IMG/VR virus record: IMGVR_UViG_2663762627_000006
Direction: 5' to 3' (one strand)
Origin: a virus
Taxonomy: Duplodnaviria > Heunggongvirae > Uroviricota > Caudoviricetes
DNA: 6,538 nt
The notes under the pieces were generated by a model that searched no databases, was not told where the DNA came from, and saw only the letters and a program-made list of their open reading frames with translations. Position numbers and translations under genes: made by a program. Position 1 is the first letter of the stretch. Every line of letters begins with the position of its first letter. Below, one piece after another: positions 235-6,538 of this stretch.

Positions 235-289
235 GGGAGCACCTCAAAAACACCATGATACACTAAATCAGTAAGTTGGCACCATTACC
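1..289 (-). mobile_element. IS1 insertion sequence, left-end portion (element continues beyond the window start); terminal inverted repeat ends at 289
   Basis: Reverse complement of 259-289 reads ggtaatggtgccaacttactgatttagtgta, matching the IS1 left inverted repeat (ggtgatgctgccaacttactgat...) with 2 mismatches; the whole 1-289 stretch is recognisably IS1 with scattered substitutions, so it is a diverged IS1 isoform. Confidence 0.9.
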
Positions 290-291
290 AG

Positions 292-468
292 GATGCGGAG
301 CATGGTGAGGCTGGTCACTTCACTTCCATCGAGCAAGAATATCCCCAGATACTCAACAGAGCGCGAGCAATCCTCGCCCGAGAAACGGCACATGTAAAAC
401 TTCAGCCGTGGCAGGATGATAAGTGGAGTCGAGTATTGCCGCATTTACCTCAGAATCTGTTTCAATAA
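292..468 (+). pseudogene. Orphan 3' gene fragment (58 codons plus TAA) with no in-frame start, abutting the IS1 end; probably the C-terminus of a gene truncated by the IS1 insertion
   Basis: Frame open from inside IS1 through 292 to TAA at 466-468 (..DAEHGEAGHFTSIEQEYPQILNRARAILARETAHVKLQPWQDDKWSRVLPHLPQNLFQ*); no ATG/GTG in frame before the last ~11 codons; G+C looks host/phage-like, unlike the AT-rich cassette that follows. I do not recognise the product. Confidence 0.3.
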
Positions 469-486
469 AGGCGCTAGTTAGTAAGG

Positions 487-512
487 CTTCCGTCATTCTG
501 CGATGACGGAAG
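487..512 (+). other. Perfect 10-bp inverted repeat hairpin (cttccgtcat / tctgcg loop / atgacggaag) about 20 nt after the orphan fragment's stop; possible residual terminator or operator
   Basis: Exact reverse-complement arms 487-496 and 503-512 with a 6-nt loop; no U-tract follows on either strand. Confidence 0.3.
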
Positions 513-570
513 TGCGGGCTGCGTACGGGAGAGCAATTGTATGAATAATATAAATATTCCGCTCACTCCA

Positions 571-632
571 TATAGCGATTTCTGATACAAACTTATCTAT
601 TGTGGTAAAATTATAGAAACAAACTTATAGCG
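571..632 (+). promoter_or_regulatory. Repeat-containing AT-rich region immediately upstream of the HNH-domain gene: direct repeat acaaacttat at 587-596 and 619-628, tatagcg at 571-577 and 626-632; candidate promoter/operator
   Basis: Direct repeats read from the sequence; 32-bp repeat spacing is about three helical turns; position is 10-70 bp upstream of the ATG at 643. No convincing Shine-Dalgarno precedes the ATG. Confidence 0.25.
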
Positions 633-642
633 TACTAACCAT

Positions 643-1425
643 ATGGACAATATTAATAAACACGGGCTCTCAAGAAGAATACCTGAGACAATAAAACGTC
701 AGATAAGGCAAAGGTGCGGCTTTGGCTGTGTAATTTGTGGATTTGGATTTTATGATTATGAGCATTTTAAACCTGACTTCGTTGATGCCAAAATACATGA
801 TCCGAATGGAATGACACTTCTTTGCTCCCAATGCAATCAAAAAAGAGCTCGTGGTAGACTTTCAGCACAGACAGTGGAAATAGCTGACAGAAATCCCAAG
901 TGCTTACAGGCTGGTTTTGCAAATGAAATGTTTGATTTTCATAATGAGCCTATAACAGTAAAATTTGCAGGAGTGACGTTTCATAACTGTCAAAATTTGA
1001 TTGTAGTCAACGAACAACCCATTCTTTCTGTGAAACCTTCACCCATACCACATGGACCGATGCTTTTATCAGGAATTTTCTGTAATTCTATTGGTAAGGA
1101 GACTTTACTGATAGATGAAAATGAATGGAAAGCTAAATCAGACAATTGGGATGTGGAGTGTACCGGCCCGCGTATAACAATACGACGTGGGCCAGGAGAG
1201 TTTGCCCTCGTTCTAAAAATGGAACCTCCAACAGGATTGATTGTTGAGCGTCTTGATATGTTGTATGAAGGGGTCAGGATGAAAGGAGATAAAGATCTGC
1301 TGGAAGTTTCGATTAATGGAGGTCCCTTGCACAGATGGCAATCATGCTCAATGTCAAATTGCCATACAGGGCTTGCGATTCAGGGCGGTATTAGAGCTGC
1401 TAATGATCCTTTGTATTGCGCCTAA
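643..1425 (+). CDS. HNH-motif nuclease-like protein (260 aa): N-terminal HNH/zinc-finger module (about residues 25-66) plus uncharacterised ~190-aa C-terminal domain; AT-rich, compositionally foreign
   Basis: Complete ORF ATG..TAA. Residues 25-66 fit the HNH pattern: C29-x2-C32, E40-H41 (candidate general base), N55, C61-x2-C64-N65 (GCVICGFGFYDYEHF...HDPNGMTLLCSQCNQ). Two 60-nt samples I hand-counted (643-702, 961-1020) are about 37% G+C, against a clearly GC-richer rusA sample. The C-terminal domain matches nothing I recognise and ends with a Cys/His cluster (HRWQSCSMSNCHTG). Confidence 0.75.
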   Translation: MDNINKHGLSRRIPETIKRQIRQRCGFGCVICGFGFYDYEHFKPDFVDAKIHDPNGMTLLCSQCNQKRARGRLSAQTVEIADRNPKCLQAGFANEMFDFHNEPITVKFAGVTFHNCQNLIVVNEQPILSVKPSPIPHGPMLLSGIFCNSIGKETLLIDENEWKAKSDNWDVECTGPRITIRRGPGEFALVLKMEPPTGLIVERLDMLYEGVRMKGDKDLLEVSINGGPLHRWQSCSMSNCHTGLAIQGGIRAANDPLYCA

Positions 1426-1467
1426 ATCCACTAAATTGATTTTCAACAATCAACTTGCCATAATTAA

Positions 1468-1504
1468 GTCACCGGAGTTTGAACTCCTCCGGTGACTTCT
1501 GCGC
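1468..1504 (+). terminator. Terminator-like hairpin downstream of the HNH-domain gene
   Basis: Perfect 10-bp GC-rich stem gtcaccggag (1468-1477) / ctccggtgac (1487-1496) with 9-nt loop, followed by ttct; lies 43 nt after the stop codon and just before ylcH. Confidence 0.5.
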
Positions 1505-1519
1505 TAAACGGGGACGTTT

Positions 1520-1621
1520 ATGCGCACATACAATCCAACCTCTCTTCTCCATTCACAGATGCAGAAATGCACCTGCGATATTTTGCATCCAGCGTTTGAT
1601 CTCTGCGGAGGTGAAGCGTGA
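1520..1621 (+). CDS. ylcH: Small protein YlcH-like (33 aa)
   Basis: ATG at 1520, TGA at 1619-1621 overlapping the ybcN GTG start (GTGA); translation [33 protein letters not shown]; length and position match my recollection of K-12 ylcH upstream of ybcN. Below the ORF-track size cutoff. Confidence 0.45.
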
Positions 1622-2073
1622 ACCTCCCACAAGATGGTATCAAATTGCATCGCGGTAACTTCACCGCTATCGGTCGGCAGATCCAGCCTTATCTGGAGGA
1701 CGGCAAATGCTTTCGCATGGTGCTTAAACCGTGGCGCGAGAGACGCAGTCTTTCCCAGAATGCACTCAGCCACATGTGGTACAGCGAAATCAGTGAATAC
1801 CTCATCAGCAAGGGTAAAACGTTCGCTACTCCAGCTTGGGTAAAAGATGCTCTCAAACACACATATCTCGGTTATGAAACCAAAGACCTGGTTGATGTCG
1901 TAACCGGTGATATCACCACTATCCAGTCGTTACGCCATACCTCCGATCTTGATACCGGAGAGATGTATGTCTTCCTGTGTAAGGTTGAAGCCTGGGCGAT
2001 GAATATTGGTTGCCACCTGACTATTCCACAGAGCTGCGAGTTTCAGCTGCTGCGCGACAAGCAGGAGGCGTAA
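1618..2073 (+). CDS. ybcN: YbcN / NinB-family protein (151 aa; lambda Orf-like recombination protein, reported as DNA base-flipping protein)
   Basis: ORF track 1618..2073 with GTG start preceded by GGAGG at 1606-1610; motif [17 protein letters not shown] resembles the NinB motif; length and synteny match DLP12 ybcN. Confidence 0.75.
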
Positions 2074-2243
2074 TGGCTACACCGCTTATTCGTGTCATGA
2101 ACGGACACATCTACAGAGTACCAAATCGTCGTAAGCGTAAACCTGAGCTGAAGCCATCCGAAATACCAACACTGCTCGGATATACCGCCAGCTTGGTTGA
2201 TAAAAAATGGTTGCGACTGGCAGCAAGGAGGAGTCATGGCTGA
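2073..2243 (+). CDS. ninE: NinE (56 aa)
   Basis: ATG at 2073 overlapping the ybcN stop (TAATG); translation [56 protein letters not shown]; the track ORF 2010..2243 is the same frame with an N-terminal extension that lies inside ybcN. Confidence 0.75.
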   Translation: MATPLIRVMNGHIYRVPNRRKRKPELKPSEIPTLLGYTASLVDKKWLRLAARRSHG

Positions 2244-2526
2244 TTTGAGAAAAGCAGCGCGTGGTCGGGAATGCCAGGTAAGAATCCCTGGCGTATGTAA
2301 TGGCAACCCTGAAACGTCTGTACTGGCACATATCCGGCTGGCTGGATTGTGCGGTACCGGTATCAAACCGCCAGACCTGATTGCCACCATTGCATGTTCT
2401 GCCTGCCACGACGAAATCGACCGCCGCACACATTTTGTCGATGCTGCATATGCAAAAGAATGCGCGCTGGAAGGTATGGCGAGAACACAGGTTATCTGGC
2501 TGAAAGAGGGGGTTATTAAGGCGTGA
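2236..2526 (+). CDS. ybcO: YbcO (96 aa; DUF1364, Cys-rich putative zinc-binding nuclease)
   Basis: ATG at 2236 preceded by aggagg (2225-2230); overlaps the ninE stop by 8 nt; translation [64 protein letters not shown]...; the track ORF's earlier start at 2197 has no better RBS. Confidence 0.8.
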
Positions 2527-2885
2527 ATACCTACAGCATCACATTACCCTGGCCTCCGAGCAATAATCGCTATTACCGCCATAATCGCGGGCGCACGCAC
2601 ATCAGCGCAGAGGGGCAGGCATACCGCGATAACGTCGCCCGAATCATTAAAAACGCAATGCTGGATATCGGCCTGGCTATGCCTGTGAAAATCCGCATTG
2701 AGTGCCACATGCCGGATCGCCGTCGCCGTGACCTGGATAATCTGCAAAAAGCCGCTTTTGACGCACTCACTAAAGCAGGTTTCTGGCTGGATGATGCTCA
2801 GGTCGTTGATTACCGCGTTGTGAAGATGCCTGTTACCAAAGGTGGGAGGCTGGAACTGACCATCACCGAAATGGGGAATGAATGA
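2523..2885 (+). CDS. rusA: RusA Holliday junction resolvase (120 aa)
   Basis: GTG start overlapping the ybcO stop (GTGA); protein [47 protein letters not shown]...[31 protein letters not shown] matches E. coli RusA nearly residue for residue as I recall it. Confidence 0.9.
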
Positions 2886-3022
2886 TGTTTGAGTTTTATA
2901 TGGCAGAACTTCTTCGCCACCGCTGGGGGCATCTGCGCTTATATCGTTTCCCCGGTTCTGTTTTGACCGATTACCGAATACTGAAGAATTACGCCAAAAC
3001 CCTGACAGGAGCAGGAGTATGA
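2882..3022 (+). CDS. ylcG: Small protein YlcG-like (46 aa)
   Basis: ATGATG at 2882-2887 overlapping the rusA stop; translation [49 protein letters not shown] at 3020-3022; length and position match DLP12 ylcG. Below the ORF-track cutoff. Confidence 0.5.
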
Positions 3023-3107
3023 AGTCAGAGATAACAATCAACTAATACTGTTTTGTTGATTTTTGCTTGTGATTGGCGTTCTGGTCTGATTTTTGTGGAG
3101 TAAGTTG

Positions 3108-3491
3108 ATGCGTGATATTCAGATGGTTCTTGAGCGTTGGGGAGCGTGGGCGGCTAATAATCATGAAGATGTGACCTGGTCGTCCATTGCCGCCGGTTTT
3201 AAGGGATTAATTCCTTCAAAAGTAAAATCTCGCCCGCAATGTTGTGACGATGACGCGATGATCATTTGCGGGTGCATGGCCCGTCTGAAAAAGAACAACA
3301 GCGATTTGCACGATTTATTAGTAGATTATTATGTAGTCGGTATGACATTCATGTCACTGGCAGGTAAGCATTGCTGCTCTGATGGTTATATCGGGAAAAG
3401 GTTACAGAAGGCTGAGGGCATAATTGAAGGGATGTTAATGGCATTAGATATCCGGTTAGAGATGGATATCGTTGTTAATAACTCTAATTAA
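3108..3491 (+). CDS. quuD: Q-like late-gene antiterminator (127 aa), Cys-rich
   Basis: ATG at 3108 with GGAG 8 nt upstream; [24 protein letters not shown]...; Cys clusters [13 protein letters not shown] and HCCSDG suggest zinc binding; sits between rusA/ylcG and the lysis genes as quuD does in DLP12. The track's TTG start at 3093 adds 5 residues and is less likely. Confidence 0.7.
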
Positions 3492-3508
3492 TATGCCAAT
3501 TGTTTACT

Positions 3509-3542
3509 AAAAATTATTAAAAATGGGGCGTTGAGACGCCCC
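3509..3542 (-). terminator. Rho-independent terminator for minus-strand (nmpC-direction) transcription
   Basis: 7-bp GC stem ggggcgt (3525-3531) / acgcccc (3536-3542), loop tgag; on the minus strand it is followed directly by auuuuuaauaauuuuu (plus 3509-3524 is aaaaattattaaaaat). On the plus strand it is followed by A-rich sequence, so it should not terminate rightward transcription. Confidence 0.5.
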
Positions 3543-3581
3543 CAAAAATAAAGGGTAATATATAACAGAAGGTTTATATAG

Positions 3582-3630
3582 TTAGAAGCAAGGTTGTGCT
3601 TCTAAAGGAAGTGGCTTGAGGGAGCCACTT
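3582..3630. other. Two further stable hairpins between the convergent terminators
   Basis: ttagaagca/tgcttctaa (9-bp stem, 3582-3605) and aagtggct/agccactt (8-bp stem, 3609-3630, loop tgaggg); neither is followed by a U-tract on either strand. Possible Q-utilisation/pause structures or 3'-UTR elements; function not determinable from sequence. Confidence 0.3.
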
Positions 3631-3672
3631 ATATGTTGGGGAGGCAACGCCTCCCGCAACATATCTTTTTCG
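3631..3672 (+). terminator. Rho-independent terminator for plus-strand transcription from the quuD side (candidate tR'-like late terminator)
   Basis: Long hairpin atatgttggggaggc / aac loop / gcctccc(g)caacatat, about 15 bp with one bulge (3631-3664), followed by ctttttc (3665-3671); ends 9 nt before the nmpC stop codon on the opposite strand. Confidence 0.55.
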
Positions 3673-3680
3673 TAATCAGA

Positions 3681-4778
3681 TTAGAACTGGTAAACCAGAC
3701 CTACAGCAACGATGTCATCAGTGCTTACACCGAGTGCTTTAGTGAAGTCATTTTTGTCAAGCAGGTTGATTTTGTAATCAACGAAAGTAGACATATTTTT
3801 GTTGAAGTAATAGGTTGCACCTACATCAACATATTTGACTAAGTCCTGATCGCCCCATACTCCAAGATCTTTACCTTTAGATTGCAGGTAAGCAACGGAC
3901 GGACGCAGACCGAAATCGAACTGATATTGTGCAACAGCTTCGAAGTTTTGGGCTTTATTAGCAACGAAGTGATCAGCAAATACAGTCATATTCTGGGTTT
4001 CAGAATAGGTAGTGGCCAGGTAAATGTTGTTAGCGTCATATTTCAGACCTGCGGCCCAAACTTCTGCATTTTTACCGGAAGCAAATACTTCAGGAAGAAC
4101 TTTCCCTGCATTAACTTGAGTGTCGGTACGATCAGATTTCGCATAAGTTGCACCGATACCGAATCCTTCGTATTCATAGGTAGCAGAGAAACCGAAGCCA
4201 TCACCGTTACCTTCAGTGTAGTTATCGAAATCGCTACGATCGTTTTTGCCTTGGTACTGAGCAGCAAAGTTCAGACCATCAACCAGACCAAAGAAGTCGT
4301 TGTTACGATAGGTTGCAACACCAGTGGTGCGACCAGTCATGAACACATCTGTTTGGGTCCAGGTATCGCCACCGAATTCTGGCAGAACGTCAGTCCACGC
4401 ACCGATGTCGTATGCTACACCGTAGTTACGGCCGTAATCGATTGAGCCGTAGTCACCGAATTTCAGGCCTGCAAATGCAAGACGGGTTTTGTCTTTGGAG
4501 GAACCTTGAGATTCAGCGCGGTTGCCTTTGAATTCATATTCCCACTGACCGAAACCAGTCAGTTGATCGTTGATTTGGGTTTCACCTTTGAAGCCAAGAC
4601 GGGCATAAGTAGTATCACCATCATCTGCATCATTAGAGGAGAAGTAGTGCTTGGCATTAACTTTCCCGTACAGATCCAGCTTGTTACTGTCTTTATTATA
4701 AATTTCAGCTGCCTGAGCAGACATCGCCATCAGTACTGATGCAGCTACAGCAGAAATTGCCACTGTTAATTTTTTCAT
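3681..4778 (-). CDS. nmpC: General outer-membrane porin NmpC / Lc (OmpC/OmpF/PhoE family), 365 aa, apparently intact
   Basis: ORF track 3681..4778 minus; signal peptide [23 protein letters not shown] then AEIYNK; porin hallmarks throughout and a C-terminal aromatic residue (..VGLVYQF); orientation opposite to the phage genes and position between Q and lysis genes as in DLP12. Confidence 0.88.
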
Positions 4779-5367
4779 CGTGAGCCCTTTTTTTTGAACT
4801 ATTATTAAAAAATGATGTCACTGCGCGATAAATATTCATCTAATCAATGTGATTATTTCAAGATGTAAGTTTTGGTTTCTCGTTTGATTTGTGAAGTAGA
4901 TCTCTATTTTTATCTGAACTTTTTTCTATCGAATCCTATTCATAGCTCTTGGCTGAATAAAAATAAATCTATTAGCCAATTTATATTAACGGCTGTTATT
5001 TATAAGTGCTCTATAATTTGAAGGTTCAATTTAAATCGGCTAAAAATAACACTGGAAATTATTTGTTGGTTATTTGTTGAGGTTTTCTTATGTATTTGTG
5101 GTGGTGTTTTGAACACTCGGTAGCATTCTCATAAATATCATTCAGTGGTTTACGTACGTAAAAAATTGGTTATGCTGTTAAGAGTGGTTACTTCGTCACA
5201 CAGCTTAAACCCGCCGTCGAGCTGGTTTTTCCATTTTTTGAGTCTCGATATTAGCTGATAACTCAATACCTGAGTTATTCACTGACTCCGAGTCTGTTAC
5301 GTTTCTGCTTTTTTGCGATACGTTGTATTCCCTCAATTTACACCCGCTTTGTCTGCGAGGTGGGGTT
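4779..5367. promoter_or_regulatory. 589-bp AT-rich divergent intergenic region; expected to hold the nmpC promoter (minus) and promoter/leader for the lysis genes (plus); contains a consensus TATAAT at 5012-5017
   Basis: No ORF of any length with a convincing RBS; strongly AT-rich; perfect -10 hexamer tataat at 5012-5017 on the plus strand with no good -35; holin RBS gaggtgggg at 5356-5364. Confidence 0.35.
5059..5080 (+). repeat. Tandem direct repeat ttatttgttgg / ttatttgttga (11 nt x 2) in the nmpC-essD intergenic region
   Basis: Adjacent copies at 5059-5069 and 5070-5080, 10/11 identical; followed by a G/T-rich tract tgtatttgtggtggtgtttt. Confidence 0.4.
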
Positions 5368-5583
5368 ATGAAATCCATGGATAAGTTAACAACGGGTGTC
5401 GCCTATGGCACCTCAGCAGGTAGTGCCGGTTACTGGTTTTTACAGCTGCTCGATAAAGTCACGCCCTCACAGTGGGCAGCAATAGGTGTGCTGGGTAGCC
5501 TGGTATTTGGCCTGCTGACGTACCTGACAAACCTTTATTTCAAGATTAAAGAAGATAAGCGCAAGGCTGCGAGAGGTGAATAA
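5368..5583 (+). CDS. essD: Phage-21-type pinholin / antiholin with dual-start motif (71 aa from ATG 5368; 68 aa from ATG 5377)
   Basis: [71 protein letters not shown]; two in-frame ATGs separated by Lys-Ser; SD gaggtgggg upstream; stop overlaps the endolysin start (TAATG). The track ORF start at 5323 is a spurious upstream extension. Confidence 0.9.
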
Positions 5584-6080
5584 TGCCTCCATCATTACGA
5601 AAAGCCGTTGCTGCTGCTATTGGTGGCGGAGCAATTGCTATAGCATCAGTGTTAATTACTGGCCCAAGAGGTAACGATGGTCTGGAAGGTGTCAGCTACA
5701 TACCATACAAAGATATTGTTGGTGTATGGACTGTATGTCACGGGCATACAGGAAAAGACATCATGCTCGGTAAAACGTATACCAAAGCAGAATGCAAAGC
5801 CCTCCTGAATAAAGACCTTGCCACGGTCGCCAGACAAATTAACCCGTACATCAAAGTCGATATACCGGAAACAATGCGCGGCGCTCTTTACTCATTCGTT
5901 TACAACGTGGGTGCTGGCAATTTCAGAACATCGACGCTTCTTCGCAAAATAAACCAGGGCGATATCAAAGGCGCATGTGATCAGCTACGTCGCTGGACAT
6001 ATGCTGGCGGTAAGCAATGGAAAGGTCTCATGACTCGTCGTGAGATTGAGCGTGAAATCTGTTTGTGTGGTCAGCAATGA
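5583..6080 (+). CDS. rrrD: SAR endolysin (T4-lysozyme-like muramidase with N-terminal signal-anchor-release domain), 165 aa
   Basis: Gly/Ala-rich weakly hydrophobic N-terminus ([20 protein letters not shown]) followed by the catalytic E-x8-D-x5-T arrangement ([18 protein letters not shown]); immediately downstream of the pinholin. Confidence 0.9.
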
Positions 6081-6538
6081 ACAGAGTAACCGCGATTATC
6101 TCCGCTCTGGTTATCTGCATCATCGTCGGCCTGTCATGGGCTGTTAATCATTACCGTGATAACGCCATTACCTACAAAGCCCAGCGCGACAAAAATGCCA
6201 GAGAACTGAAGCTGGCGAACGCGGCAATTACTGACATGCAGATGCGTCAGCGTGATGTTGCTGCGCTCGATGCAAAATACACGAAGGAGTTAGCTGATGC
6301 GAAAGCTGAAAATGATGCTCTGCGTGATGATGTTGCCGCTGGTCGTCGTCGGTTGCACATCAAAGCAGTCTGTCAGTCAGTGCGTGAAGCCACCACCGCC
6401 TCCGGCGTGGATAATGCAGCCTCCCCCCGACTGGCAGACACCGCTGAACGGGATTATTTCACCCTCAGAGAGAGGCTGATCACTATGCAAAAACAACTGG
6501 AAGGAACCCAGAAGTATATTAATGAGCAGTGCAGATAG
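6077..6538 (+). CDS. rzpD: Rz i-spanin (inner-membrane spanin subunit), 153 aa; stop is the last codon of the window
   Basis: ATG at 6077 overlapping the endolysin stop (ATGA); [60 protein letters not shown]... N-terminal TMD plus coiled-coil periplasmic domain, near-identical to lambda Rz as I recall it. Confidence 0.9.
6297..6479 (+). CDS. rzoD: Rz1 o-spanin (outer-membrane lipoprotein), 60 aa, entirely embedded in the +1 frame of Rz
   Basis: [24 protein letters not shown]... lipobox VVGC with Cys20; proline-rich mature part ([13 protein letters not shown]); classic embedded Rz1 architecture. Confidence 0.85.

Follow-up and report, generated by a model that had tools for sequence, protein, structure and literature searches.

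The 6,538 bp stretch of DNA analysed here (the window) very probably carries an intact nmpC allele (the gene known as lc in phage PA-2) in the late-regulatory part of a lambdoid prophage of the DLP12 type, positioned on the opposite strand between Q and the S-R-Rz/Rz1 lysis genes. Intact prophage porins of the nmpC/lc type are already known and this one is no departure from the published picture; publications of 1985–86 already gave the prophage location, the disruption of the K-12 copy by IS5 and how nearly identical lc and nmpC are (Highton et al.; Blasband et al., as they are cited in PMC3333887 and PMC11677980).

The porin coding sequence occupies exactly positions 3681–4778 on the minus strand in the list of open reading frames and is complete from ATG to stop (365 codons plus the stop codon), as an earlier note on this DNA had described it. 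The ORF matches the Pfam Porin_1 profile (PF00267) over its full length (profile positions 1–337 of 337; E=1e-156, 522 bits with a cut-off of 23.7) and scores 526.5 bits with the NCBIfam 'porin OmpC' subfamily (cut-off 484); the cut-offs of the NCBIfam PhoE and OmpF equivalogs are not reached. A signal peptide is encoded by codons 1–23 (positions 4710–4778, minus strand) with cleavage after AQA, and a 69-nt sig_peptide is annotated at the matching position in the PA-2 record (J02580). Mature OmpC chains in the PDB start aligning at residue 24, giving a mature N-terminus of AEIYNK, and the mature protein (A24–F365) aligns over its entire length with the crystallised OmpC and OmpK36 (E of about 1e-135). 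The translation includes the loop-3 constriction motif PEFGGD at residues 133–138, and the C-terminus (...VGLVYQF) aligns as the same as that of OmpC, with the aromatic outer-membrane insertion signal present. The signal peptide, porin hallmarks and C-terminal phenylalanine that the earlier note had listed are thus all in place. The profile match, the Sec signal peptide with its AxA motif, PEFGGD and the C-terminal aromatic residue put the product in the general bacterial porin family (OmpC/OmpF/PhoE class), and the ORF is a real gene and not a chance reading frame. The end-to-end alignment to solved OmpC structures suggests that the protein would form a trimer of 16-strand beta-barrels with channel conductance. 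Two ORFs lie antisense over the gene, one of 187 aa (3882–4445, plus strand) and one of 69 aa (3633–3842, plus strand), the latter being 'ORF1' in the 1986 PA-2 record; neither has any sign of being a gene, and both are most likely shadow ORFs. A PADLOC search of the porin gave no defence-system match.

In a four-way protein alignment of the window porin with WP_000737266.1 of E. coli SE11, PA-2 Lc and the K-12 NmpC fragment, it is 100% identical to the SE11 protein, shares 363 of 365 residues with Lc (R99 and V154 are H and F in Lc), and shares 344 of 346 residues with the K-12 fragment (G149 and T151 are Q and A in K-12), which bears out the earlier naming of the gene as nmpC. At the nucleotide level at least 30 complete E. 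coli genomes, SE11 and AW1.7 among them, have a 100% identical gene annotated as 'porin' (WP_000737266.1), identity with PA-2 lc (J02580) is 99.5%, and genes that are 98–99.5% identical are present in the temperate coliphages PhiR26_1, PhiR30_1, Kati, Turner, mEp332 and Chlobot. This near-identity, the location on the opposite strand between Q and the lysis cassette, and a conserved control region with CRP sites (see below) are the features of the NmpC/Lc prophage porins. Like the window porin, PA-2 Lc (protein 2) is 365 aa long with the same signal peptide, and its gene lies upstream of and divergent from the lysis genes; it differs by the two substitutions and by a few upstream base changes, and whereas PA-2 is a phage, the window comes from a bacterial chromosome, with its prophage broken by IS1 at the left edge. 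The general porins OmpC, OmpK36, OmpF and PhoE also share with it the full-length homology to 16-strand trimeric porins, PEFGGD and the C-terminal signal, although they belong to the core genome whereas the window porin is prophage-carried. The main differences from OmpC are around residues 180–230 and include an 8-residue insertion in OmpC. OmpD of Salmonella has been regarded as corresponding to NmpC in E. coli (PMC3333887).

A second common prophage-porin allele (locus L005, 16583–17665), which is annotated as 'ompC' or 'OmpD' and corresponds to window positions 3681–4778, encodes a 360-aa protein. Residues 1–181 are 100% identical to those of the window porin, and the two diverge in short patches at approximately 182–190, 220–232, 268–272, 308–311 and 340–352, the last of which contains the position of the K-12 IS5 insertion. 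We take these patches to be the extracellular loops L4–L8, and the pattern resembles a mosaic of varying surface loops.

The earlier note described the K-12 copy as cryptic and disrupted by IS5 near its 3′ end, and this is correct. In MG1655, nmpC (b0553) is annotated as a pseudogene, in which IS5B (1195 nt) separates a fragment of 1040 nt from one of 58 nt. The insertion is after codon 346 with duplication of a CTAA target (codons 346/347), and the junctions read ...TTCACTAA/GGAAGGTGCGAA... and ...TTCGCACCTTCC/CTAAAGCACTC (also given as ...GACTTCACTAA/GGAAGGTGCGAA... and ...TTCGCACCTTCC/CTAAAGCACTCGG...); the last 19 residues, including the C-terminal YQF, are consequently lost in K-12. With the K-12 junctions and feature table as guides, the equivalent position in the window is a single unoccupied CTAA at 3739–3742 (minus strand; codons T346/K347), and the window reads GACTTCACTAAAGCACTCGG without interruption, i.e. 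the site is empty and the gene insertion-free as had been claimed. The comparison with K-12 nmpC and PA-2 lc that the note had proposed shows the reading frame to be free of frameshifts, internal stops and insertions when set against PA-2 Lc, and the gene is intact.

This intactness is real but ordinary. Among 5,426 complete E. coli genomes the porin gene is matched in 3,582 (about a third have no match), with one to five copies per genome in those that have it, and 2,463 of the 5,426 contain at least 80% of the gene in one uninterrupted piece. An 80-nt probe across the K-12 nmpC::IS5 junction matched fully in only 285 of the same 5,426 genomes, and the 15 junction matches listed are all in K-12 laboratory strains or strains of unstated origin (MG1655, C600, J53, ER1709 and others). 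In E. coli nmpC is as a rule uninterrupted, and K-12, with its IS5-broken copy, departs from that rule.

The interrupted form is also present in phage 434B (OL657227.1), a sequenced laboratory derivative of phage 434, in which positions 4108–7699 (locus L006) contain the Q-nmpC::IS5-S block of K-12, its IS5 after codon 346 included. The 434B record marks a crossover in ylcG, and the phage evidently gained the DLP12 late region by recombination with a K-12 host. A viable phage therefore tolerates the 2.3 kb of nmpC::IS5 between Q and S.

Taken as a whole, the window is the late-regulatory part of a lambdoid prophage of the DLP12 type. At its left edge is the end of an IS1-family element (positions 1–288, with the inverted-repeat end at about 288 and an InsA-like frame on the minus strand), a stretch to which thousands of additional matches to E. 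coli chromosomes and plasmids are due. The element adjoins the last 180 nt of a gene for a P22AR-C-terminal-domain protein, and because this gene is whole in AW1.7, IS1 truncates it in the source strain. The next gene is a 260-aa ORF (643–1425, plus strand) with a cysteine-rich N-terminus (CGFGCVIC...CSQC) that corresponds to phrog_6544, a family of unknown function; it has no match in Pfam, NCBIfam or PADLOC, and its residues 10–71 give a weak match to HNH endonucleases (E=6e-4). To the right of this the order is ybcN (NinB-like), ninE, ybcO, rusA, ylcG, quuD, the porin gene (on the opposite strand), essD, rrrD and rzpD/rzoD. The quuD gene (3108–3491, plus strand) encodes a Q-type late antiterminator distantly related to Q21 (Pfam Phage_antitermQ, E=1e-53; Q21 in the PDB, E=8e-8) and is annotated in SE11, AW1.7 and K-12. 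On the other side of the porin gene, essD (5368–5583, plus strand) encodes a class II (phage 21-type) holin with a dual-start motif MKSM (Pfam Phage_holin_2_1, E=3.5e-35, and annotation of related genomes), rrrD (5583–6080, plus strand) is annotated as a lysozyme/endolysin (Pfam Phage_lysozyme, E=1e-45), and rzpD (6077–6538, plus strand) encodes the i-spanin (Pfam Phage_lysis, E=3e-54), with the o-spanin lipoprotein gene rzoD (6297–6479, plus strand, in the ORF list) embedded within it; both spanin genes are annotated in K-12 and AW1.7. Flanked by rusA-ylcG-quuD and by essD-rrrD-rzpD/rzoD, the porin gene was rightly described earlier as prophage-borne.

The Q-porin-lysis order is the same in K-12, SE11, AW1.7 and phage 434B. 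The K-12 prophage DLP12 (qsr') has the same neighbours on both sides of nmpC (ybcN-ninE-ybcO-rusA-ylcG-quuD and essD-rrrD-rzpD/rzoD) and an identical 3′ flank, but it carries IS5B where the window site is empty, and it has ybcL and ybcM upstream of ybcN whereas the window has the 260-aa gene; DLP12-type prophages seem to hold variable accessory genes in this slot upstream of ybcN. In SE11 the block sits in a full-length lambdoid prophage at a tRNA-Arg gene, with heads, tails and integrase. The closest genome is that of AW1.7 (99.9% over positions 289–6538), in which the block is part of a remnant of about 15 kb that adjoins ybhC and has a truncated integrase. The IS1 at the left edge of the window indicates some decay of the prophage, and since the window starts in IS1 and the AW1.7 region is in a decayed prophage, the surrounding phage may be defective.

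Other outer-membrane cargo is found in comparable positions in related lambdoid phages. In Lambda_ev087 (locus L007), which has a related Q gene, a gene for the lipocalin Blc (3050–3574) follows Q on the opposite strand, as the porin does, and in 434B (locus L006) a gene for the lipid A deacylase LpxR (2693–3652) lies at or near the post-Q position, also on the opposite strand.

The 3′ flank of the porin gene is a hairpin-rich spacer of about 190 nt that extends from quuD to the porin stop codon (3492–3680) and is 100% identical in the window, K-12 and PA-2. It folds into five consecutive stem-loops that are far more stable than shuffled controls on both strands (z=-5.8 for plus, z=-8.8 for minus). 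A terminator scan identified a minus-strand intrinsic terminator at 3525–3542 (GGGGCGTCTCAACGCCCC followed by a T-run), a predicted canonical terminator for the porin transcript. The longest of the hairpins (at about 3630–3672, plus strand) is followed by CTTTTT and could act as a terminator of read-through from Q. A search of the whole window against Rfam (E≤1) matched no known RNA family, and the five hairpins are therefore not a described RNA.

The porin and essD start codons are separated by a divergent, AT-rich control region of 589 nt (4779–5367; GC content 0.28–0.30), which on its minus strand comprises the porin promoter region and 5′ UTR, as judged from the alignments and J02580. The upstream region aligns with PA-2 without gaps and with about 10 scattered differences, and relative to the window K-12 has a 16-nt deletion far upstream. 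In the 200 nt nearest the porin start there is a single nucleotide change from PA-2, and one nucleotide change plus one A of an A-run from K-12; this A-run is directly upstream of the porin start codon and has the same length in the window and PA-2, with one A fewer in K-12. At about position 4946 the window has a T where both K-12 and PA-2 have a C. Two CRP sites annotated in J02580 map to 4887–4907 and 5183–5203, inside the gapless PA-2 alignment. No consensus promoter emerged from a simple sigma-70 scan of the two intergenic regions flanking the porin gene, and it is from the identity to K-12 and PA-2 that we infer a CRP-dependent porin promoter.

The same region also appears to serve the lysis genes. 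A DLP12 lysis-cassette reporter spanning '-121 to +650' has been described, and control by RpoE reported (PMC7918800). The forward primer of this fragment maps to window position 4706 (position 10754 of the K-12 locus) and the reverse primer lies inside essD, which places the cited start of the lysis cassette at about 4827 (plus strand), some 50 nt past the start codon of the porin gene and on the opposite strand. By our own reading there is a sigma-E promoter-like motif, GAACTA-N16-GTCACT, at 4796–4823, which would fit the reported RpoE control. With so little space between the lysis start and the start codon of the porin, the porin and lysis-gene promoters may be back to back or overlapping, and a single control region appears to drive divergent transcription of the porin and the lysis genes.

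A Q-dependent pR′ is not annotated in the 434B record, and comparisons locate none, in that Lambda_ev087 lacks informative homology downstream of its related Q gene and the porin-less phages share only the holin gene with the window. The one positional anchor is the primer mapping of the '-121 to +650' fragment. Candidate sites of Q action are the start at about 4827, a TTTACG-N16-TATGCT sequence near 5150–5177, and the Q-porin spacer; if Q acts from the spacer, late transcripts would run antisense through the porin gene. We give only an outside chance to the combined proposal that the shared control region makes porin and holin/endolysin expression mutually exclusive through transcriptional interference and that, separately, porin-allele variation reflects an ongoing receptor arms race among lambdoid phages. 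Under mutual exclusion the porin would be expressed in the lysogenic state, with CRP and at 37°C, and the holin and endolysin would be expressed with envelope stress and Q. Variation among the prophage-porin alleles clusters in short patches in the C-terminal half.

The opposite orientation, a terminator and a probable promoter of its own, and a slot that has different cargo in related phages are characteristic of a moron. We propose that the porin gene would be an autonomous unit of this kind, transcribed in the lysogen from its own CRP-activated promoter, with the intrinsic terminator of the Q-porin spacer ending the transcript. Sec would export the precursor and BAM would insert it as a general-diffusion porin, a trimer of 16-strand barrels that adds to or partly replaces OmpC/OmpF, and the changed outer-membrane permeability and phage/colicin receptor set would amount to lysogenic conversion. 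Phage PA-2 adsorbs to OmpC, and production of Lc lowers OmpC/OmpF, with a superinfection-exclusion benefit for the phage. Several published observations concern the function and control of NmpC in other strains. Channel conductance (Hindahl et al. 1984, as cited in PMC8544407) and increased sensitivity to colicins and phages (Pugsley & Schnaitman 1978, as cited in PMC8544407) have been attributed to NmpC, and it is linked by association to heat resistance in AW1.7 (as cited in PMC8544407 and PMC12890032). By analogy, a lysogen of the source strain would be expected to express the gene and to have an altered porin profile and altered phage and colicin sensitivity; that the porin is 'functional' in this strain, as the earlier note put it, is likewise something we infer from the intact sequence.

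The gene could instead be intact but silent, transcriptionally or post-transcriptionally 'quiescent' under most conditions and with little physiological effect, which we regard as unlikely although it merits weighing. The low GC content of the control region (0.28–0.30) is typical of DNA silenced by nucleoid proteins; against this, lc of PA-2, with a near-identical control region, was reportedly discovered in the 'protein 2' work through its abundant protein product. The nmpC gene of E. coli B is called 'quiescent' in the title of Prilipov et al. (1998), as that paper is cited, and an intact gene thus need not be expressed under laboratory conditions. Repression of the nmpC promoter, PnmpC, by OmpR, IHF and MprA (PMC11677980) and the targeting of nmpC mRNA by the sRNA RybB (PMC3333887) are also in keeping with silence. 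However, this same promoter, which CRP activates, is active in K-12 as 5′ RACE shows and drives the nested IS5 transposase there (PMC11677980), nmpC mRNA in K-12 is strongly induced (16.5-fold) upon a shift to 37°C (PMC8544407), and in CFT073 a temperature of 37°C favours the NmpC copies in RNA as well as in protein, with NmpC protein detected (PMC12890032).

Inactivation of the porin by its residue differences (R99 and V154 relative to PA-2 Lc, G149 and T151 relative to K-12) is very improbable. Residues 149–154 are just past the loop-3 constriction motif, but each of the variable residues is shared with one of the two other alleles, and all of the hallmark motifs are intact. Moreover, the genomes (at least 30, all complete) that have this exact protein at 100% nucleotide identity are described as unrelated, and such conservation argues for purifying selection. 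We give practically no credence to the porin being a core chromosomal ompC/ompD paralogue and not phage cargo, a reading that could appeal to the NCBIfam OmpC subfamily placement and to annotations calling some related alleles 'ompC' or 'OmpD' but that is refuted by the phage context within the window, with phage late-region genes on both flanks, and is further countered by the gene being in the same slot in sequenced plaque-forming temperate phages and being carried by the full-length SE11 prophage, and by a copy number of one to five per carrier genome with about a third of genomes lacking a match.

The identification of the gene as an intact nmpC/lc allele carries little weight as a discovery, and the exact allele is present in many finished genomes as 'porin'. 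Its value is for annotation, in that the gene should be called nmpC/lc, an intact prophage porin, and not ompC/ompD or a pseudogene, and K-12 is a poor reference for nmpC. Since the gene is uninterrupted in most of the E. coli strains that carry it, nmpC may have a part in outer-membrane permeability and in which phage and colicin receptors are displayed, and perhaps also in heat tolerance.
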